Positions 30,702 to 43,785 of a DNA stretch of 64,000 bases are shown here, piece after piece; within the stretch, counting starts at the first letter, position 1, and every line of letters begins with the position of its first letter. The DNA comes from an uncultured Pseudomonadales bacterium (GTDB taxonomy: Bacteria > Patescibacteriota > Microgenomatia > UBA1400 > PJMF01), in assembly GCA_964495475.1 (NCBI GenBank), contig CAZBVY010000001.1, forward strand, positions 4,239 through 68,238, written 5' to 3'. The position numbers and the translations under genes are program-made. The notes under the pieces were generated by a model. That model saw only the letters and a program-made list of their open reading frames with translations. It did no database searches and was not told the DNA's origin.

Positions 30702-31583
30702 TTAAATCAATTCGCTATTTTCTTCTTTAGAAAGATCCTTTTTTGATCTCTCCATGACGTAAATATCCTGATGATAATCATTTTCGCCCACAAATTCTGC
30801 CTCGCCACGAATAATTTTTTCAAAGGGTCGACAAGCAAAACAGCCAGCTTCTCCATGAGGACATTTAAAGCGTTCAAGTTGACGCGCAAGCTTCATTTCT
30901 TTGGCAATCTTTAATATTTGCTGATGAGCAGTTTCTAAATCTGGTAAGGGTTTCTCTGCTATTTTGCCCGTCTCTAAATACCAATAACTGGCTTTACTGA
31001 CTTTGCGATGTTGACAGTTGTGTACCAAAAGATGATAAATCGGTAATTGCAATGAACTTTCATTTTCTTCATTTTTGCTGGTTTTAAAATCAATAATATT
31101 GACACTGTCGTCTGCTTGTAGATACTCCAACCAATCAATTTTGCCACACAGAATCAAATTCTCTTCTTCCGACAACCAATAATGTGGTAGATCTTCTTTA
31201 ATTTTGACTGCCAAATCATTTAAAGGCCCAGGATTATCCATTACTTTTTGTAACATTACTCGACCGCGTTCTTTGTATTCTGCTTCTGTTTGTTCCTCAA
31301 AAAAACCACCTTTTTTACCGGTTACAGCTTGCCAATTACGTTCAAATTTAACAATTAAAGACTCTTTGAAACGTTCTGAGCCAGGTAAAACCGACAAAGA
31401 TTCCAGAACACTATGAACTACTTGCCCTAAAGCTAATGGAGGTGACATGAGTTGAATTTTGTGACGAGTTTTTGGATCTTTATAAACATTCTTGAGGTAA
31501 TAGGCTCTAGGACACTGTAAAAAATCGCTAATTGAAGTGTGAGAGACCCACACTGCTGTATATTTATCAGGCATGTTACTCAT
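30702..31583 (-). CDS. PD-(D/E)xK nuclease, Cas4/RecB-family with C-terminal Fe-S cysteines
   Basis: SISDFLQCPRAYYL, IDFKTSK and CPHGEAGCFAC motifs; no CRISPR nearby. Confidence 0.65.
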   Translation of the reverse strand: MSNMPDKYTAVWVSHTSISDFLQCPRAYYLKNVYKDPKTRHKIQLMSPPLALGQVVHSVLESLSVLPGSERFKESLIVKFERNWQAVTGKKGGFFEEQTEAEYKERGRVMLQKVMDNPGPLNDLAVKIKEDLPHYWLSEEENLILCGKIDWLEYLQADDSVNIIDFKTSKNEENESSLQLPIYHLLVHNCQHRKVSKASYWYLETGKIAEKPLPDLETAHQQILKIAKEMKLARQLERFKCPHGEAGCFACRPFEKIIRGEAEFVGENDYHQDIYVMERSKKDLSKEENSELI

Positions 31584-31793: not shown

Positions 31794-33512
31794 ATGTCAG
31801 ATACCACAACTCCAATAGAAAATAATAACATTCCTCAAGTAGATCTAGTTGTCGCAGAAGAAAAACCAGTTGAACTTAAAGAGTTATCTGCTTACGCTAA
31901 AGAATATACCAGACAGTACCAAATGGACTGGGAATATCATCATCGCGCTATTATTTCTCCTCTAGAAGTAGACGAATTGGCTTCTAAAATTGCAGAAGCT
32001 TACGAAAAAGTGCGCAAGGTTATCGATTGGAAAGAAGAAAATTTATTACGTCGTGGTGCCATCGAGCGCATTCTCAAACGTCGTCTAGTCTCTGAATTAT
32101 ATGGAATTAATATTTTGCCAGATCTTAATGCCACTGAAATGGCTGAACCAATGATCTTGGAATTAATGCGCAGTGGATATTTTGATAACGGCAAAATTGC
32201 TAAAAAACAAATCAAAGAAATCGAAAACATTCTTAATAAATACATTCGTATTTTAGATAATTCCAGATTACCTCAAGCTCCTAGTAAAAAACATGTCAAA
32301 AATAAAATGGAGTTTTATACTTGGATGTTGGAAATCGCAGCTTGTGAAATTGAAGAAGTACTAGCACCTGCTTTTAAAGAAAACGCTCTACTTAATCTCA
32401 TGACCAATGTTATTTTTGAACGCAATCGTATTTTACCAAGTGACAGATTAAGTGATTTAGATAGATTAGTTCAAGTTTATATTGCTTGTATGCGCACTTT
32501 ATATAATTTTGATGATCCCATCATTTCTTACAATGTTATTAAAATTCGTTATCCTTTTTGGATAGAAGAAGTTGACAGTAGTATTGAAAAAATAATGGAA
32601 CAAGTTCACGACATTCGTCAACAAATTGAAACAGACTTAGATAGTGAAGAAGGTAAACAATTATTTAAACTAGCTGGCAAATACGATGCGGCTTATCGCA
32701 TCATTGGCGATGTTCTAGATAAAATTAATAACACTCCAGAAATTGTTCGTGAAAAACTTGCCAATCCAGAAGAACTTAAAAAAATGGTGGAAGAAAGTTA
32801 TTTTAAAAGAAAGGCCAGTCTCAAAGGTCGTCTTTTCCGCAGTGCTATTTACTCTACGCTTTCCATTTTTGTAGCTGGCATTGCTAGTTTCATTATTTTT
32901 GAAGGACCAGTGGCCAAATTAGCTGGATTAGAATTTAGTCTACTTTCACTTTTTATAGATTTATTAATTCCTAGTTTGGTAATGTTCTTGTTAGTAATTT
33001 TTATTCGCCCGCCAAAAGATCAAAATTTGAGAGTGGTGCAAAAAGAAATTGCCAAAATTATTCATAAACAAAATAGCGAGGACGTTTATGAAATTGATTT
33101 TCGTCGTAAGAAAAACAAAGCTTTGAATATCATTTTCATTATTATTTCTGTTATTTGTGGGATTGCGAGCATGCGTTTTATTTTTTGGATATTTGAAATT
33201 GGCAGAGTTCCATGGACATCCATGTATTTGGATACCGTGAATGTTGCCATGGTAGTTTTTGCAGCTATGGCTATTAAACAAAAATCCAAAGAAATCACTA
33301 TTGAAGATCATGGCAATTTTATTGAATTCTTATTAGAACTTTTTTCCATTCCATTAGCCAAAATTGGTCAATGGTTTTCTGCTAAATGGAAGAAATATAA
33401 TATCTTTTCTGCTCTATTCACCGCCGTGGTCGATTTGCCATTTTCTGCCTTAATTCGCATCGTCGAAGATTGGCGCAACTTCTTGAAAGAAAGAAGTTCA
33501 GAAATGCATTAG
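31794..33512 (+). CDS. hypothetical protein with soluble N-terminal domain and C-terminal multi-TM region
   Basis: 572 aa; four or more TM helices after about aa 340. Confidence 0.55.
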   Translation: MSDTTTPIENNNIPQVDLVVAEEKPVELKELSAYAKEYTRQYQMDWEYHHRAIISPLEVDELASKIAEAYEKVRKVIDWKEENLLRRGAIERILKRRLVSELYGINILPDLNATEMAEPMILELMRSGYFDNGKIAKKQIKEIENILNKYIRILDNSRLPQAPSKKHVKNKMEFYTWMLEIAACEIEEVLAPAFKENALLNLMTNVIFERNRILPSDRLSDLDRLVQVYIACMRTLYNFDDPIISYNVIKIRYPFWIEEVDSSIEKIMEQVHDIRQQIETDLDSEEGKQLFKLAGKYDAAYRIIGDVLDKINNTPEIVREKLANPEELKKMVEESYFKRKASLKGRLFRSAIYSTLSIFVAGIASFIIFEGPVAKLAGLEFSLLSLFIDLLIPSLVMFLLVIFIRPPKDQNLRVVQKEIAKIIHKQNSEDVYEIDFRRKKNKALNIIFIIISVICGIASMRFIFWIFEIGRVPWTSMYLDTVNVAMVVFAAMAIKQKSKEITIEDHGNFIEFLLELFSIPLAKIGQWFSAKWKKYNIFSALFTAVVDLPFSALIRIVEDWRNFLKERSSEMH

Positions 33513-33562
33513 TTTTTTTGGCATAGGCATTTTTCTGATATAATCACCTAGCATTTTAATAA

Positions 33563-33650
33563 GGAGGCATCGCATAGTGGCCAATTGCACAGGTTTGCTA
33601 AACCTGACCCCTTTTGGGGTTCCTGGGTTCAAATCCCAGTGCCTCCGCCA
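33563..33650 (+). tRNA. tRNA-Ser (anticodon GCT), CCA encoded
   Basis: Acceptor GGAGGCA/TGCCTCC, anticodon stem CAGGT/ACCTG with loop TTGCTAA, long variable arm CCCC-TTTT-GGGG, T-loop GTTCAAATC, G73. Confidence 0.9.
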
Positions 33651-33849
33651 TTTTTCAATATCGTTAGTTTTATGAGGAATACGGGTTGGAAGAATAATGG
33701 TGGCAAAAAGATAACGTCATTAAAACTTAAACGAAATACTAAGTTTATTTAGCCTCAAAACGTTTATTGTATCAAATAACATCTTTTTATATCAGCAGAA
33801 AAAAGTTATGTATTTAAGAAAAAAAGACGATTTTGAAGCATTTTAAGGC

Positions 33850-33878
33850 TTGACAAACACCAAAAAAAGCGTATACTA
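33850..33878 (+). promoter_or_regulatory. near-consensus sigma70 promoter TTGACA-N17-TATACT
   Basis: TTGACA at 33850-33855 and TATACT at 33873-33878, about 120 nt upstream of the DUF3892 gene. Confidence 0.6.
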
Positions 33879-33998
33879 TATGCCATTAAAAATACAGCCT
33901 CAACTGGGTTTAAATATTTAGCTGATAAAACTCGTATTAACAGCATAAACTATTTCTTTCTTGGTTGTCAACTGTGCTCTATTAAAGAAAGGCTGAGA

Positions 33999-34292
33999 AT
34001 GTCAGTCAGAATCACTTGTATAAATAAAGATGGAGGAAACCATCAAAATCCGCATGAAGGAATTACCGATTATGGGTGGATAAATGAATCCACCAATAAA
34101 ACTGGGAAAAGCACGCGAAGTCAAATGGTTTCTTTCATAGAAGATAATAACGGCAAGGCATATGTAGAAGACGCAGCTGGAAATAAAGTTTACTGCTATG
34201 TTAGAAGCATAAATAATGTTAAGTTTTTGCAAACTTACTCAAATGATAAGCCAACAGATAATCTATTAACACTTAAAGAGTGTCAAATTTAA
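33999..34292 (+). CDS. DUF3892-domain protein
   Basis: ITCINKD..HQNPHEGITDYGWI...YVEDAAGNKVYCYV...FLQTYSNDKPTDNLLTLKEC matches the DUF3892 pattern (C-terminal DNLL.L.EC). Confidence 0.6.
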   Translation: MSVRITCINKDGGNHQNPHEGITDYGWINESTNKTGKSTRSQMVSFIEDNNGKAYVEDAAGNKVYCYVRSINNVKFLQTYSNDKPTDNLLTLKECQI

Positions 34293-34341
34293 TAATTAAA
34301 ATAAGCTGCTTTAAGAAATTAAGGCAGCTTATAAAAAATTT

Positions 34342-35508
34342 ATGGATTCCCTAAATAAAATGCTAAAAGAAAATATTAAAGATATAAAAATAAGCGACAT
34401 AGAACAGTTAATTTCTCAATCCGTTGTAGAAAATAAAACGATAGAATATAAACAAAATTTACCTGAAAATTCTGATACAGATAAAAAAGAATTTCTTGCA
34501 GATGTTTCTGCGTTTGCTAATACTAATGGAGGGTACCTAATATATGGAGTATCAGAATCTAGTGGAAAACCAACTGACATATTGCCAATAAAATCAACTG
34601 ATCAAGATGCTGAAATAAGAAGGTTAGAATCAATTCTGCAATCTGGAATTGAGCCAAGAATTAGTTGCGAAATAAGGTCTATTGAACATGAAGATGGTTT
34701 CCTATATTTAATAGGTGTTAAACAAAGTTGGAATATTCCACATAGAGTTATATTTAAAGGTTATGATAAATTTTATGCGAGAAATTCTGCTGGAAAATAT
34801 CCATTGGACATTGATGAATTAAGAAACTTGTTCACCTTGCCTATGACAATAAACGAAAAAATAGAAAAAAGAATCTCTGAAAGAAGAAGATATTTAAATA
34901 GCAATTCGCTTCCTATAAAACAGGATAATAAACCAAAACTATCTTTACACTTGATACCAGAAGAGTCGTATAGAAATAGAAATTATCCAGAAATATTCTC
35001 CATAAAAAATGATCCTTTAATTATGCCAATGTCTTACTTTGGATCAAATTTAAAAATAAACCTTGACGGATTTATGACCTATTCAGTTAGTAGAGAATTG
35101 GGAACTTTTTCTTACACTCAAATGTATAGAGATGCAATGATTGAGGCTTTACGCACTGAAATTGTTGATGAAGAAGATGGATCTCTTTACTATAAAGAGG
35201 TAGAAAAAAGCTTGATCGAAGCTATAAGTAGGTACATGGAGGTTTATAAAAAATTAGGCATTGGCGCACCAATAGTTGGCTATATCTCTTTCTATAAAAT
35301 GAATAAAACAAAGTTAATACACCCCATGCAAATATCAAGAAGTACACGCGGGATAGATATAGATGAAATTTATCTACCAGATTTCTTAATTGAGGATTAT
35401 GAAACAGAGATTGGAAAAATTATAAAACCAAGTTTAGACGTATTCTGGAATGCATTTGGATTTGAAGAGGATCCAAACATAGATCGAGATGGAAAATCTA
35501 CTCAATAA
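34342..35508 (+). CDS. Schlafen-like AlbA_2 (divergent AAA-4) domain protein with uncharacterised C-terminal domain
   Basis: EYKQNLPEN...EFLADVSAFANTNGGYLIYGV matches the AlbA_2 core; 388 aa. Confidence 0.6.
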   Translation: MDSLNKMLKENIKDIKISDIEQLISQSVVENKTIEYKQNLPENSDTDKKEFLADVSAFANTNGGYLIYGVSESSGKPTDILPIKSTDQDAEIRRLESILQSGIEPRISCEIRSIEHEDGFLYLIGVKQSWNIPHRVIFKGYDKFYARNSAGKYPLDIDELRNLFTLPMTINEKIEKRISERRRYLNSNSLPIKQDNKPKLSLHLIPEESYRNRNYPEIFSIKNDPLIMPMSYFGSNLKINLDGFMTYSVSRELGTFSYTQMYRDAMIEALRTEIVDEEDGSLYYKEVEKSLIEAISRYMEVYKKLGIGAPIVGYISFYKMNKTKLIHPMQISRSTRGIDIDEIYLPDFLIEDYETEIGKIIKPSLDVFWNAFGFEEDPNIDRDGKSTQ

Positions 35509-35543
35509 AAAAATAATAAACTAAAGTTATATTTATCAAACCA

Positions 35544-36320
35544 ATGATTGAAAATAAAACTATATTTCCCCACTTTTTGTCTTTAGTTCCAATAAAAATC
35601 GAGCTTATGTTTAACAATGTCAGCTTAGCTCTCGGAACAGCTTTTATTTATAGAAAAAACAATAAGCTATATTTAGTTTCTGCATGGCATAATTTTTCAG
35701 GCATAAATCCGGAAACTAAACAACCGCTGTCTGCTCATGGTGGCTTACCAAATAAAGTTAAGTGTAGATTGATATTAAATGAAGAACTAATTTCTTGGTC
35801 AGATGAAATGTTTGATTTAACTAAAAATGATTATGAGAAACTATGGATGGAGCATCCAACTCATAAAGAAAAGGTAGATATTGGAGTGTTGCCAATTTCT
35901 GTAAATAAAAAATTTAAAGTAAATGCAATTAATGATTATAAATTTTCTGATATGAGAACAGAAATAGCTCAAGATGTTTTTATCTTAGGTTTCCCAAGAG
36001 GAATCCCGGGAAGAAGAGAGCTTCCAATATGGAAAAGGGGAAGCATAGCAAGTGAGCCAGGAGGAAATTATCCTAAAATCTTAATAGATTCAGCAACAAG
36101 AGAAGGAATGTCTGGATCTCCAGTTATTATGAGATATAAAGGATTTTACTTTAAAGAACCAGGAAAAATAAACAATGATGATTGGATGGGAGAAGGAGAT
36201 TTATTTCTTGGGGTTTATTCAGGAAGACTTGGAAAAGAAGAAATTAAAGCACAATTGGGTGTTGTATGGAAAAGCTATATAATAGACGAAATTATAAATC
36301 AGGCTGAAGAATTAAATTAA
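35544..36320 (+). CDS. cytoplasmic trypsin-like serine protease (Trypsin_2)
   Basis: Catalytic triad contexts SAWHNF (His), DIGVLPI (Asp), GMSGSPV (GxSGxP Ser); no signal peptide. Confidence 0.65.
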   Translation: MIENKTIFPHFLSLVPIKIELMFNNVSLALGTAFIYRKNNKLYLVSAWHNFSGINPETKQPLSAHGGLPNKVKCRLILNEELISWSDEMFDLTKNDYEKLWMEHPTHKEKVDIGVLPISVNKKFKVNAINDYKFSDMRTEIAQDVFILGFPRGIPGRRELPIWKRGSIASEPGGNYPKILIDSATREGMSGSPVIMRYKGFYFKEPGKINNDDWMGEGDLFLGVYSGRLGKEEIKAQLGVVWKSYIIDEIINQAEELN

Positions 36321-36417
36321 AAAAGTTCCAATTTCATCCCACGACGCCCGCACCAAGCAAATTTAACAAAAATTATCCTTCTCTGTTATTTTTTCCCCCA
36401 ATAGCTATACTAAAAGC

Positions 36418-38097
36418 ATGTCATTTTGGAAGATTTGGGGAATTGGTGCTGTAGTAGCAATTTTTCTATCACTATTAATGTGTTTGCCAAAATATGGTCA
36501 AGTTCCAGCCGGTCTTAATAGAGATGAAGTTGCCTTGGGCTATAACGCTTATAGTTTGTTAAAAACTGGGAAAGACGAATGGGGAAAATCTTGGCCAATT
36601 AGTATTACTTCTTTTGGAGATCAAAAATTACCTGGCTATATTTATACTTTAATTCCTTTTATTGCTTTTTTTGATTTAGAAATTTGGGTAGTTCGTTTAC
36701 CATCTCTTTTAGCCGGTTTAATCGTCATGATTAGTATGGGTCTTATTGCCATGAAGTTAGCTAAACTGGCTAAATATTCATCAAGTTGGCAATTGATAGC
36801 TAGTTTTATAGTAATGATATTAATCGCCATTAGTCCCTGGCACATGCATTTTTCTAGAGTAGCTTATGAAACTCATCTAGCCATGGCTTTTTTTGTAAGT
36901 AGTGTGGCCTGTTTATTTTTTGCTTTGAATACTCAGCGTAAATTGCTACAACGAATCTTATTAGCCAAAGCTGGTTTGTTGGCAGGATTAACTTTATTAA
37001 CTTACCATGGCTATCAAATCTTTACTCCTTTGTTTTTATTAGCTTTTTTAATCATCTTTTTTCAGCAAATTAAAAAATTAGATAAAATTGGCTTAGCAAT
37101 AGGCGTATTTTTAGGTGTATTAAGTGTAGGGTTATTGATCGGTGGCGGAATTCTTCAAGCTAATCAAGCTAAAAGCCAAGGTATTAATCCTTTTAATAAT
37201 CAGGTTTTGTTAAATAAAGCAACTGAATATCGTAGTACAAGTAATTTTCCACCATTCGTTAATAAAATTTTATTTAATAAAGTTAACGAAGGTTTAATCA
37301 CTTTCACTCAAAATTACATCTCTACTTTTTCTGGAACTTTTTTCTTTATTCACGGCAGTGGTCATGGAGATCACAATCCAGGAAATGGTAACAATACTAA
37401 TTTATTTTTAGCACCACTTATTTTGTTGGGTTTATTGACTTTGGGCAGACACTATAAAGAAAAAACTACTCAAATAATTATTGCTTGGATATTATTAGCG
37501 CTGATTCCTTCATCACTAACCATTAATCCATTATTAGAAGTTCGTTTGGGAACAATTTTCCCAATTCTAGAATTACTTGCTGTCATTGGTATTTTTTCTT
37601 TATTAATTTTCTTGTCTAATTTGCAAAAAAAATTAGTAAGTATTTTATTAATTAGTATTGGCTTAATTTTTACCATAAGATTATTTATTTTTTACACCAC
37701 TCTTGCTCCAATAACTTCCGTTGATAATACTCATTATCATTTATTAGCCAGAGCTTTATTTAAATATCAAGGAAATAATGAAGCTGTATTAACTCAATCT
37801 CCAGCTAGCTCTCCATATATTTGGTATTTGTTTGAAAATAAAATTGATCCTGCGTTTGCTCAAAAATCGATTGTTCATCATCCTACTACAGATGAGGGAT
37901 TTAAACATGTTAAACAATTAAATAATATTTATTTCGAGACTATTAATTGGAATGATTTAGATAAAAAATCATACATTTTAATTCTTAAGCCCACTGAAAT
38001 TTCTATAGATCAAAGAATTAGTTCTCAATTTTCACTAATTGAAGTAATTACCGATGCAAAAAACCAAACTATTTATGAAGTTTGGAAATATAATTAA
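36418..38097 (+). CDS. GT-C fold membrane glycosyltransferase (GT39/ArnT/PMT-like)
   Basis: N-terminal RDE motif in the first loop and 10 or more TM helices. Confidence 0.65.
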   Translation: MSFWKIWGIGAVVAIFLSLLMCLPKYGQVPAGLNRDEVALGYNAYSLLKTGKDEWGKSWPISITSFGDQKLPGYIYTLIPFIAFFDLEIWVVRLPSLLAGLIVMISMGLIAMKLAKLAKYSSSWQLIASFIVMILIAISPWHMHFSRVAYETHLAMAFFVSSVACLFFALNTQRKLLQRILLAKAGLLAGLTLLTYHGYQIFTPLFLLAFLIIFFQQIKKLDKIGLAIGVFLGVLSVGLLIGGGILQANQAKSQGINPFNNQVLLNKATEYRSTSNFPPFVNKILFNKVNEGLITFTQNYISTFSGTFFFIHGSGHGDHNPGNGNNTNLFLAPLILLGLLTLGRHYKEKTTQIIIAWILLALIPSSLTINPLLEVRLGTIFPILELLAVIGIFSLLIFLSNLQKKLVSILLISIGLIFTIRLFIFYTTLAPITSVDNTHYHLLARALFKYQGNNEAVLTQSPASSPYIWYLFENKIDPAFAQKSIVHHPTTDEGFKHVKQLNNIYFETINWNDLDKKSYILILKPTEISIDQRISSQFSLIEVITDAKNQTIYEVWKYN

Positions 38098-38124
38098 ATT
38101 AAGTGATTTTACCTATTATTTACA

Positions 38125-38340
38125 TTGATGATAAAATGTAACTCTATTATGACAAATGAATCTCAACTAAACATGGAACTAATTAACCAAGAATTTCAAA
38201 GATTGCAAACTGAAAAAGAATTAAGTGATTGTAAAGCATTGGAAATATTAGTTGGTATATATGGACCCAGTGAAATGGCTCAGTTTTTAAATTGGCTTGG
38301 ATCACAAAATAATAATGCGAGAAAAAATAAAAATGGCTGA
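38125..38340 (+). CDS. hypothetical small protein
   Basis: 71-aa ORF. Confidence 0.3.
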   Translation: MMIKCNSIMTNESQLNMELINQEFQRLQTEKELSDCKALEILVGIYGPSEMAQFLNWLGSQNNNARKNKNG

Positions 38341-38632
38341 AACACAATACACCCCTCCATTTTATCCAGAAGATATTAGTGCTTTAGAAGGTCCCTTGCC
38401 TTTTACCACATCTTTTAATTTAGATGAACCAAGCATGATTGATCTTAGTTTGCTTGATAAACAAGAAAAAGAAGCGTTGTTAAAAGAGTTAGAAAAAAGA
38501 CAAAATCATCATGATGCGTCAACTAGTTGGACTAAAGATCATGTAGATTTACTTTTTAAACTGCGAGCTCAGCTTGATAAAAATACGAGTGCCGATACTT
38601 ATATCCCATTAAAAGATCGACCCAGACGCTAA
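38333..38632 (+). CDS. hypothetical small protein (start probably at the internal Met)
   Basis: ORF 38297-38632; the Met at 38333 avoids overlap with the previous ORF. Confidence 0.35.
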   Translation: MAETQYTPPFYPEDISALEGPLPFTTSFNLDEPSMIDLSLLDKQEKEALLKELEKRQNHHDASTSWTKDHVDLLFKLRAQLDKNTSADTYIPLKDRPRR

Positions 38633-38671
38633 GACTTTTGTTTGGTAAAATACAGTTCTGTTACTTAAAAA

Positions 38672-38756
38672 GGAGGGATCGCATAGTGGCCTAGTGCAGC
38701 GGTTTACTAAACCGCCATAGCGCAAGCTATCCAGGGTTCGAATCCCTGTCCCTCCG
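38672..38756 (+). tRNA. type-II (Ser-like) tRNA with apparent anticodon ACT, no encoded CCA
   Basis: Acceptor GGAGGGA/TCCCTCC, anticodon stem GCGGT/ACCGC with loop TTACTAA, variable arm ATAGC-GCAA-GCTAT, T-arm CAGGG-TTCGAAT-CCCTG, G73. Confidence 0.75.
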
Positions 38757-38777
38757 CTCTACATTTTTAAAGAAAAA

Positions 38778-38805
38778 ATCCCCGTTTGCACGGGGATTCT
38801 TGTTT
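38778..38805. terminator. bidirectional intrinsic terminator
   Basis: ATCCCCG-TTTGCA-CGGGGAT hairpin with flanking A/T runs, between the tRNA and the convergent 38819-39220 gene. Confidence 0.6.
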
Positions 38806-38818
38806 AAATCACTGAATT

Positions 38819-39220
38819 TTATGCTGATCTCCTTTCAAACTGTGTGCTTTGAATAAATTCAAAAAACTTTTCTTCTGGGGTGAAATATTCTTCCAACCCA
38901 AAGTGCTTTCGGGAGAAAAACCCCTGATCGCACAGTTCGCCAATTTTGCGTCTAATTTCCCAGGTAGCAAAAATGCCTATCTGAGAAACTTTCTGCAAAT
39001 CAGAAGCTTTAACCGGGCTTCCGTACCGTCCAACACATGTTGCCATCATACTCATGGCCATGTTGGTTGCAGTGTAGTATTGAGGGTCTGGTCTGAGGAA
39101 AACGAATGCTTCATTCTCCGACAACCTCTCCAAAAAGTCTACGAACTGCAATTCCGGAACTTCCTTGGAATTACCGATTACTGCCATTTTATGGCTCCTT
39201 TCAGTGATTTTAATGTTCAC
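38819..39220 (-). CDS. hypothetical protein (GC-rich, likely horizontally acquired)
   Basis: 133-aa ORF with local GC 40-48%, immediately 3' of the tRNA. Confidence 0.45.
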   Translation of the reverse strand: MNIKITERSHKMAVIGNSKEVPELQFVDFLERLSENEAFVFLRPDPQYYTATNMAMSMMATCVGRYGSPVKASDLQKVSQIGIFATWEIRRKIGELCDQGFFSRKHFGLEEYFTPEEKFFEFIQSTQFERRSA

Positions 39221-39373
39221 TACCTAATCTTAGAGAGAAGTTTCCCCTCCAGATATCAGTAGCTAAATTAGACTAATGATTATATGCAAAAAAGAGCCAT
39301 AAGTCAATTATATTGATTAATTTATATAATTGATCAAGCTAGCTAAACAAAAATAAAGTTATAAAATATTCAT

Positions 39374-42472: not shown

Positions 42473-43585
42473 TTAAACAATTTTTTCCCAACTAAATTCT
42501 GATTTACCAAAATGACCATAGGTCGAAGTTTTGGCGAAAATTGGCTGACGCAAATCAAGTTGTTTAATGATTTTTTGTACAGACATATCCAATAAACCCA
42601 AAGCATATTTTTTTATCTCTTCATCGCTAATCTTACCTGTTCCAAAAGTTTCTACATCAAAAGAGACTGGCGTAGCTTGACCAATGACGTAAGCTGCTCT
42701 TACTTCACAACGATCTGCATATCCTTTTGCAACAATATTTTTAGCTAAAAAACGACAAGCATAAGCAGCGCTACGATCAACTTTACTTGGATCTTTACCA
42801 GAGAAGCAACCGCCACCATGACGCCCCATACCTCCATAGGTATCGATAATGATTTTACGCCCCGTTAAGCCCGTGTCAGAAGCTGGACCACCTATTTCCC
42901 ACGCTCCAGTACCATTAATAATTAATTTAATATCATTTTGATTTAAAATTTGATTGGGCAAATATTTTTTAACTGCCGGCACGATTACTTTGTCCCAAAG
43001 ATCATTTTCTAACTGTTCTTTTTTAATTTGTGGATCATAGGGTACCGCCATAATGATAGTCGATACTTTATTTGGTTTACCCTCAATGTAATCAATTACT
43101 ACTTGAGCTTTACCATCTGGTCGCAAATAAGAAATAATTTTGTCTTCACGAACTTGATCTAAATTACGCATCAATTGATGAGCCAGCATAATTGGCATCG
43201 GCATCAATTCTGGAGTTTCATTACAAGCATAACCAAACATAATTCCCTGATCTCCAGCGCCACCATCGTCCACGCCAAGAGCAATGTCTCTAGATTGTTG
43301 ATGAATGTAGATTTCTAAATCTGATTTGTCAGAAAAACCCCAATTGGGATTTGTATAACCAAGTTTTTTAATGGTTTGACGAGCAATATTTTCGTAATCA
43401 ATTTTGCCAGAACAAGTCACTTCTCCTGCTAAAATAATTTTATTAGTTGTTACTAAAGTTTCTACAGCCACACGACTTTGAGGATCGATTTTTAAACAAG
43501 CATCTACAATGCTGTCTGAAATTTGATCACAAATTTTGTCAGGATGACCAGAGGCCACTGATTCTGAAGTAAATTGTTCCAACAT
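42473..43585 (-). CDS. metK: S-adenosylmethionine synthetase
   Basis: GHPDKICDQISD, GAGDQG and GGGCFSGKDPSKVDRSAAY motifs. Confidence 0.9.
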   Translation of the reverse strand: MLEQFTSESVASGHPDKICDQISDSIVDACLKIDPQSRVAVETLVTTNKIILAGEVTCSGKIDYENIARQTIKKLGYTNPNWGFSDKSDLEIYIHQQSRDIALGVDDGGAGDQGIMFGYACNETPELMPMPIMLAHQLMRNLDQVREDKIISYLRPDGKAQVVIDYIEGKPNKVSTIIMAVPYDPQIKKEQLENDLWDKVIVPAVKKYLPNQILNQNDIKLIINGTGAWEIGGPASDTGLTGRKIIIDTYGGMGRHGGGCFSGKDPSKVDRSAAYACRFLAKNIVAKGYADRCEVRAAYVIGQATPVSFDVETFGTGKISDEEIKKYALGLLDMSVQKIIKQLDLRQPIFAKTSTYGHFGKSEFSWEKIV

Positions 43586-43630: not shown

Positions 43631-43785
43631 GAAAATAAAAAACACTCTGCAAAGAGTGTTTGAATTTCTCAAACGAGCGAATCTCCCTCTTGCGAGCTAG
43701 ATTTAGCACCGTGTTCTATACAAAATCGGTTGCTGAATGGGTCAAAAGGCTAGTTCCCTCACCATTTCTCTTGATTTGATTTGTT
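43631..43785 (-). promoter_or_regulatory. SAM-I (S-box) riboswitch with terminator in the metK leader
   Basis: The minus strand reads UCAAGAGA..UGGUGAGGGA..GCC..GACCC..AGCAACC...GGUGCUAAAUCUAGC...GGGAGAU, then an AACACUCUUUGCAGAGUGUU hairpin and a U-run. Confidence 0.7.

Follow-up and report, generated by a model that had tools for sequence, protein, structure and literature searches.

We analysed a block of genes at positions 33563-36417 of a 64,000-nucleotide (nt) stretch of DNA, which we call the window and to which all coordinates refer. The block carries three genes, labelled A, B and C, which are predicted to encode a DUF3892 protein, a prokaryotic Schlafen (pSlfn) protein and a trypsin-like serine protease, respectively. 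We conclude that, with a probability of roughly 0.72, the block is a small cluster in which each of the three genes is an independent, horizontally mobile conflict or defence module, and not one three-component system. Open reading frames (ORFs) and Pfam searches agree with a first-pass annotation of this DNA on the existence of three co-oriented genes, on their lengths of 97, 388 and 258 amino acids (aa) and on their assignment to DUF3892, AlbA_2 and Trypsin_2. The three genes are as follows:

33999-34292, plus strand: gene A, DUF3892, 97 aa (ORF; Pfam E 6e-10)
34342-35508, plus strand: gene B, pSlfn, 388 aa (ORF; Pfam SLFN_AlbA_2 E 3e-20)
35544-36320, plus strand: gene C, predicted stand-alone chymotrypsin-fold serine protease, PDC-S45-like, 258 aa (ORF; Pfam Trypsin_2)

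Co-occurrence of the three gene families

The first-pass annotation had proposed that the three genes form a single system, in which a sensor of the AlbA_2 or DUF3892 type is coupled to a proteolytic effector, and that conserved co-occurrence of the genes should be sought in other genomes. We ran this search using hidden Markov models (HMMs) built from 120 homologues per family, which were applied to the six-frame ORFs of all fetched loci. The sampled loci comprised 80 genome contigs anchored on gene B and 80 metagenome contigs anchored on gene C, to which the contexts of the closest homologues were added; viral contigs sampled for the three families gave 4, 21 and 2 loci.

In the non-redundant sets, neither gene A nor gene C is present at any of the 84 gene B loci, 71 of which have at least 1.5 kb on both sides. 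Gene A is also absent from all 99 gene C loci. One of these 99 (locus L140) does have an AlbA_2 gene, which is unrelated to gene B and lies approximately 0.8 kb from the protease gene, with an opposite-strand ORF in between. Finally, none of the eight gene A loci contains gene B or gene C. The same is true of the closest relatives: the other two genes are absent around the closest protease homologues (59-60% identical) and around the closest DUF3892 protein (approximately 62% identical). All-against-all BLAST clustering of the immediate neighbours revealed no recurrent unannotated partner of gene B or gene C.

The exact trio is confined to contigs that are at least 99.9% identical to the window (ENA ERZ724080-84, runs SRR3330211/2). 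Each of the three families occurs patchily in distant phyla, at approximately 40-65% identity, and all are borne on plasmids, prophages and conjugative elements. The families are thus dispersed and unlinked elsewhere, an outcome that the first-pass annotation had itself named as incompatible with its proposal. Since the claim of a trio fails, it should not be carried forward as a new immune system. What does hold is the more general point that all three families have links to conflict or defence: it agrees with the published work on pSlfn proteins (PMC13056530), with the PDC-S45 match of gene C and the defence neighbours of its homologues, and with the literature on DUF3892 operons.

The three predicted proteins

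The best reading of gene B is a pSlfn defence protein that is complete in itself. The gene encodes two domains:

34429-34806, plus strand: Schlafen/AlbA_2 nuclease domain (PF04326), aa 30-155, with the motif E30-x4-E35-x-K37
34834-35505, plus strand: C-terminal alpha/beta domain, aa 165-388, which belongs to no Pfam family and recurs fused to other effectors

Proteins of the pSlfn type have been shown experimentally to be phage-defence effectors; they carry an Ex4(E/D)xK motif and are fused to highly diverse sensors, and 17% of them are fused to domains without annotation (PMC13056530). The N-terminal domain of gene B has the Schlafen fold. It matches PF04326 (SLFN_AlbA_2) at aa 30-155 with 73.3 bits (E 3e-20), and its motif is complete (E30-NKTI-E35-Y-K37). 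This motif is highly conserved, as E30 and K37 are each found in 120 of 120 homologues, while position 35 is occupied by E in 84 of them and by D in the other 36. Moreover, the family profile matches the structure of Cash (9ylu) with E 2.9e-8 over gene B residues 23-159. The idea that AlbA_2 is the sensor of the block therefore has to be given up, as Schlafen/AlbA_2 is now known as a nuclease effector and gene B has a sensor-type domain of its own.

The remaining approximately 230 aa of gene B have no Pfam match. In an AlphaFold2 model (pLDDT 87.3), and in the order along a single polypeptide, the nuclease domain is followed by a helical linker and by a C-terminal domain of approximately 220 aa. 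This C-terminal domain (aa 165-388) is conserved among homologues. We found 483 homologues of gene B at E<=0.001, spread over many bacterial and archaeal phyla. The best of them are approximately 40% identical over the full length and come from Acidobacteriota, Planctomycetota, Chloroflexota, cyanobacteria, Patescibacteria and several archaeal groups. Matches to the C-terminal domain by itself are mostly the same Schlafen fusion of approximately 390 aa. The domain also occurs behind a TIR domain (P0376, 696 aa), behind a nucleoside phosphorylase of the PNP_UDP_1 family (P0422, 508 aa) and behind an N-terminus without assignment (P0488, 460 aa).

Because the C-terminal domain is exchanged among Schlafen, TIR and PNP effectors, it appears to behave as a shared sensor or regulatory module. 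As gene B carries this sensor-type domain itself, it can be regarded as a complete sensor-effector protein that needs no partner. If gene B works like RorSlfn5, Cash and human SLFN11, its C-terminal part would sense an infection cue and release the nuclease. The freed nuclease would, by analogy, cut tRNAs, shut down translation and limit phage yield. In the case of RorSlfn5, tRNA anticodon arms are cut once the protein's Ig-like domain recognises a T5 protein (PMC13056530). The immediate neighbours of gene B homologues (n=150) include four type I restriction enzymes, four type I specificity subunits and three mad5 genes; within the window, the defence-type neighbours of gene B are genes A and C only. 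Gene B represents a clear Schlafen-type immune nuclease in a genome that is probably from Patescibacteria, a group with few recognised defence systems, and its C-terminal domain, as a swappable module, is a candidate phage-sensing domain.

Gene C is predicted, on the basis of its sequence, to be a stand-alone cytoplasmic S1 protease of a PDC-S45-type family, without a partner gene. The protein consists of the protease domain only, and its score against the Pfam Trypsin_2 model is just over the cut-off (28.7 versus 27.6 bits). The first-pass annotation was correct in describing an intact catalytic triad: H49, D112 and S190, the last of these within GMSGSPV, are near-universal, as H49 occurs in 119 of 120 homologues and both D112 and S190 occur in all 120. 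Its statement that gene C lacks a signal peptide is likewise consistent with our analysis, which used hydropathy only; none of the proteins of genes A, B and C has a signal-like or membrane-spanning stretch by this measure (maximum Kyte-Doolittle 19-residue mean 1.33).

When compared with models of known or candidate defence proteins, gene C shows a moderate match to PADLOC PDC-S45 (E 3.6e-16, 57 bits), in which its residues 16-226 align with profile positions 24-235 of 293. It also matches the PADLOC models RT-Protease_XI (E 5.5e-7) and LmuA (E 2.5e-4) weakly, and phrog_7688 with E 3e-33. We found no experimental study or validation of PDC-S45, and the sole paper that we found to name it (PMC12429752) reports a PADLOC match to PDC-S45 in Sinorhizobium prophages. 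Searches by sequence found no relative of the gene C family in PDB.

Gene C has 1135 homologues, among which are lone genes on mobile elements. They are present on 98 plasmids, mostly of the Klebsiella IncF type, where they stand alone, and on 21 IMG/VR contigs. A homologue on a Raoultella IncFII plasmid adjoins the replicon and an IS110 transposase, and one on an Acinetobacter plasmid adjoins replication genes and a RelE/ParE toxin-antitoxin pair. In Shigella phage SfII, the homologue is near the right end of the genome, between a copy of IS911 and an HNH endonuclease gene. Many known defence genes are among the immediate neighbours of gene C homologues, and include mad2/3/8, AriA, PycTM, PD-T7-1, PD-T7-5, AbiEi, BrxL, OloB, AbiLi, capP and DolB; the systems behind these genes include MADS, PARIS (AriA), Pycsar, AbiE, PD-T7-1/5 and Olokun. 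This lone occurrence, together with the defence neighbours, is the pattern of a stand-alone defence-island gene. The protease would presumably act alone on a phage or host target.

In one contig family (L090, positions 203-1894, and L091), a protease homologue that is among the closest (60% identical) is convergent with an alpha/beta-hydrolase gene. Alpha/beta-hydrolases are reported to be among the effector classes that linked proteases activate (10.1101/2025.11.14.688446).

The PDC-S45-like protease family is widespread on plasmids and prophages and beside many defence genes, and we found no published function for it. We regard this family, the gene B nuclease and the C-terminal domain of gene B as single-gene leads.

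Our best reading of gene A is that it is a deregulated DUF3892 gene, encoding a stand-alone small protein. It has been reported that CapH/CapP-like regulators control DUF3892 operons (10.1101/2022.04.27.489752). Among the 468 homologues of gene A, six contexts have Pfam-annotated neighbours, and in four of these (L094, L178, L183 and L215) a regulator of the S24 or M78 type lies beside the DUF3892 gene. Specifically, L094 and L178-180 have a LexA-like S24 repressor opposite the DUF3892 gene, and the DUF3892 gene of L183 adjoins an M78 peptidase and a small or helix-turn-helix (HTH) gene. In L215, genes for DUF2188 and DUF1883 precede that for DUF3892, beside a pair of HTH and M78 genes. These contexts with S24 or HTH/M78 genes agree with the published work. 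Within the window, gene A does not adjoin a regulator of the HTH, M78 or S24 type, and neither DUF2188 nor DUF1883 accompanies it. A comparison of the intergenic regions of five loci revealed no common palindrome or operator upstream of DUF3892 genes.

A further DUF3892 gene is situated on a contig that resembles a conjugative element (L216, with a relaxase and a TraG-like gene), between a type III restriction enzyme gene and other cargo. On this contig (positions 1-4291), the DUF3892 gene is 3.4 kb downstream of a gene for an AlbA_2-HATPase_c_4 protein, whose AlbA_2 architecture differs from that of gene B. The two domain families are thus found together in a second defence-island setting. 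In the DUF3892 alignment, C7 and C95 are invariant and H15 is near-invariant; these residues may form a metal site or a disulfide. We found no relative of gene A in PDB by sequence, and NCBIfam gave no usable match for genes A, B or C.

Layout of the block and its flanks

Apart from the three genes, the block contains these features:

33563-33650, plus strand: tRNA-Ser (anticodon GCU), the upstream boundary of the block (ARAGORN; Rfam RF00005, 55.4 bits)
33850-33877, plus strand: putative promoter, a match to TTGACA-N16-TATACT approximately 120 nt 5' of gene A (11/12 consensus positions)
34301-34332, plus strand: hairpin between genes A and B, with a 14-bp stem and a 4-nt loop (repeat search; RNAfold -18.3 kcal/mol)

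The tRNA-Ser(GCU) was previously noted beside the block, and was found here by both ARAGORN and Rfam. It is separated from gene A by 348 nt, while the gap between genes A and B is 49 nt and that between genes B and C is 35 nt. The plus strand holds every feature of positions 31794-38757, and the co-orientation of the three genes is thus not specific to them. The three modules would sit head to tail in this long co-directional gene run of an AT-rich, probably Patescibacteria, genome.

The first-pass annotation had also described a near-perfect promoter. Its two hexamers are as described and match the consensus at 11/12 positions; however, the spacer is 16 nt and not 17 nt, the match ends at 33877, and such matches are not rare. 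The window has five sites that match at 11/12 positions or more, compared to 3.6 +/- 2.2 in Markov-1 random sequence, and a 5-kb promoter scan gave 20 sites where 22.6 are expected. The count of promoter matches is therefore not significant by itself. Nonetheless, four of the five best matches stand just 5' of co-oriented genes, and for this reason the match at 33850-33877 is a plausible promoter. This sigma-70-like sequence would drive gene A. We searched the 348-nt spacer between the tRNA and gene A for a riboswitch or leader using Rfam, and obtained no match even at E<=1.

The hairpin between genes A and B has no U-tract on the plus strand. A scan of the plus strand from 33650 to 37500 found no terminator-like site, and the hairpin was likewise not called. 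We infer that it might be an attenuator, a stabiliser of an RNA 3' end or a minus-strand terminator. There is no hairpin or other structure in the gap between genes B and C. These two genes are probably co-transcribed here; their adjacency is a juxtaposition, which by itself does not argue for coupling.

It had been suggested in the first-pass annotation that the block has a GC content above that of its host and the typical anatomy of a defence cassette inserted at a tRNA. The GC difference has the opposite sign, with 30.8% for the block versus 33.5% for the window. None of the genes is an outlier in GC (z-scores of +0.07, -0.71 and -0.41 for genes A, B and C), and their z-scores for GC at third codon positions (GC3) range from -0.66 to +0.32. 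There is no integrase or recombinase gene in 33651-36417 or among the flanking genes, and no direct repeat of the 3' end of tRNA-Ser(GCU) in 33400-38900; the sole tRNA-related repeat in the latter region is the 5' half of a second tRNA-Ser. When gene B and the downstream gene were looked up by exact protein match, which reached same-strain contigs only, no empty site was seen at tRNA-Ser(GCU), and all contigs that have the identical downstream gene and enough upstream sequence carry the block. A tRNA-integrated island is therefore not supported as a description of the block, which shows no integrase, no attachment (att) repeat and no compositional shift.

The second tRNA-Ser (38672-38757, plus strand) follows tRNA-Ser(GCU) at a distance of 5.1 kb; its anticodon, ACU, is unusual in having A at position 34. 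The two tRNAs would both read AGY codons, and the two genes, each taken with 7 nt upstream, share 86% identity over 49 nt. Contig L003 (ERZ724082), which stems from a different sample, matches window positions 33594-38757 at 99.98% identity, and splits off at 38757/38758 (5164/5165 in L003), i.e., at the last base of tRNA-Ser(ACU), into ThiF-family and radical-SAM genes. The strain-variable junction is accordingly tRNA-Ser(ACU), not tRNA-Ser(GCU). Past tRNA-Ser(ACU) and its terminator hairpin, the window has an orphan gene of 133 aa (38819-39220, minus strand) with no Pfam match, a GC content of 42.3% (z +2.1), a GC3 of 45.5% (z +2.8) and an 11/12 promoter match at 39307 (minus strand). This gene is probably foreign cargo.

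Upstream of gene A, the run contains only the tRNA and a gene for a 572-aa membrane protein. The gene downstream of the block encodes a 559-aa membrane protein, previously labelled a housekeeping GT-C glycosyltransferase. The GT-C label is plausible because the protein is 27% identical (E 1.6e-10) to a PMT_2 protein in the window. However, the protein has no Pfam match above threshold, and we found no support for the term housekeeping. Two genes upstream of the block there is a PD-(D/E)XK nuclease gene with a weak Cas4/Dna2-like signature (30702-31583, minus strand). Further away, an S-adenosylmethionine (SAM) riboswitch (RF00162, 51.7 bits; 43676-43780, minus strand) is located 5' of an S-adenosylmethionine synthetase gene (42473-43585, minus strand), which is an ordinary arrangement.

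Alternative explanations and known systems

It is important to consider a number of points that weigh against the conclusion that the block consists of three independent defence modules. The functions of genes A, B and C are predictions. The co-occurrence analysis used HMMs at the level of families, many of the metagenome loci are short, and the upstream side extends to at least 1.5 kb in 46 of the 99 protease loci. A gap of just 35 nt without a terminator separates gene B from gene C, so that the two may be co-transcribed and may hence have a functional link specific to this lineage. The sensor role of the gene B C-terminal domain follows from the logic of domain swapping, for which three alternative fusions were inspected, and many of the shorter matches to this domain may be gene fragments. 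PDC-S45 is a computational candidate only. Finally, 30.4% of pSlfn genes have no defence neighbour (PMC13056530), and with approximately 30% of these genes away from defence genes, gene B could have a non-immune role.

A first alternative hypothesis is that the three are ordinary, non-immune accessory genes of this lineage. Gene B would then encode an enzyme of RNA processing or a regulator that binds nucleic acids, the product of gene C would be a cytoplasmic protease for quality control or regulation, and that of gene A would be a stress protein. In addition to the proportion of pSlfn genes without defence neighbours, this hypothesis would fit the lack of any known defence system flanking the block, either in the window or in the annotation of L001, as well as the host-like composition and the absence of mobility genes. 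It would also fit the finding that only 2 of 7 tested pSlfn genes protected E. coli (PMC13056530). We nonetheless consider it unlikely. All three families have the patchy distribution across distant phyla described above, at approximately 40-65% identity, and are carried by plasmids, prophages and conjugative elements, with many known defence genes among their neighbours. Moreover, gene B has its C-terminal domain in common with TIR and PNP effectors typical of abortive infection.

Two other hypotheses couple the genes to each other. In the original proposal, all three genes form one defence system, in which AlbA_2 and/or DUF3892 senses a nucleic acid or nucleotide and the protease is the effector. 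The co-oriented genes with gaps of 49 and 35 nt, the single good promoter match upstream and the conflict associations of all three families would be expected of such a system. However, the 191 independent loci, each anchored on one of the three families, show no co-occurrence, the -18.3 kcal/mol hairpin parts gene A from gene B, and the co-orientation covers the whole 31794-38757 run. Furthermore, the Schlafen domain, with its intact active site, is an effector enzyme rather than a sensor, and gene B already holds a modular sensor-type domain. We therefore judge this proposal to be highly improbable.

Alternatively, genes B and C alone could be a lineage-specific pair of pro-nuclease and protease, in which the protease would cleave gene B, e.g., in its linker, and thereby free the Schlafen RNase from the C-terminal domain. 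The order of the genes is that of published pairs, where the nuclease is directly 5' of a trypsin-like protease (PMC12799240), the 35-nt gap has no hairpin, and gene C has the weak matches to RT-Protease_XI and LmuA. In the known pairs, however, an MBL-fold nuclease co-evolves with a protease that is fused to a sensor enzyme (PMC12799240), whereas here the nuclease is of the Schlafen type and the protease is a stand-alone protein of 258 aa. In addition, gene C is absent from the 84 gene B loci, the 99 gene C loci include just one, unrelated, AlbA_2 gene, and the close gene C homologues (59-60% identical) have no Schlafen neighbour. Such a pair is thus very unlikely. There is a similarly slim chance that Schlafen tRNase B has been newly paired with protease C, possibly with gene A as a third part, as a Schlafen-based analogue of the MBL pairs. 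If this were true, the pairing would be a module caught while assembling, and for that reason unseen elsewhere.

Our best reading is that the block is an ordinary small defence-gene cluster, and that gene B is a further pSlfn with an unannotated modular sensor-type domain. The predicted components of this cluster can be compared to several known systems. The modules of MBL pro-nuclease and trypsin-like protease in Hachiman, AVAST, Lamassu and DRT (Tuck et al., Science 2025, PMC12799240) have the same gene order as genes B and C, and the HMMs of the LmuA and RT-XI protease modules match gene C weakly. We rejected the assignment of genes B and C to this MBL-type class, since all three of its defining features fail: the nuclease has a Schlafen fold, the protease is unfused, and there is no co-occurrence or co-evolution.

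The DUF3892 operons regulated by CapH/CapP-like or LexA-like proteins (10.1101/2022.04.27.489752, and Burroughs & Aravind 2020, cited there) contain members of the same small family as gene A, at 55-65% identity. In these operons the regulator adjoins the DUF3892 gene, whereas gene A instead follows a tRNA and a promoter match. Gene C is most similar to PDC-S45, in that it is a single gene with homologues in defence islands, plasmids and prophages.

For gene B, the closest solved structure by sequence profile is that of Cash (CRISPR-associated Schlafen, PDB 9ylu, PMC13462974). Cash is also a Schlafen tRNase that is switched on by a fused sensor domain; its sensor is a Csx15 Rossmann-like domain for cA4, and it is linked to type III CRISPR. 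Gene B has a C-terminal domain of another kind and no CRISPR locus in its vicinity. The pSlfn proteins, e.g., RorSlfn5 and EcoSlfn7 (Perez Taboada et al., Nat Microbiol 2026, PMC13056530), resemble gene B in having an Ex4(E/D)xK RNase domain within a single polypeptide, where the domain joined to it is non-catalytic and presumably acts as the sensor. They also share with it a wide and patchy distribution, and a subset of the genes adjoins restriction-modification genes.

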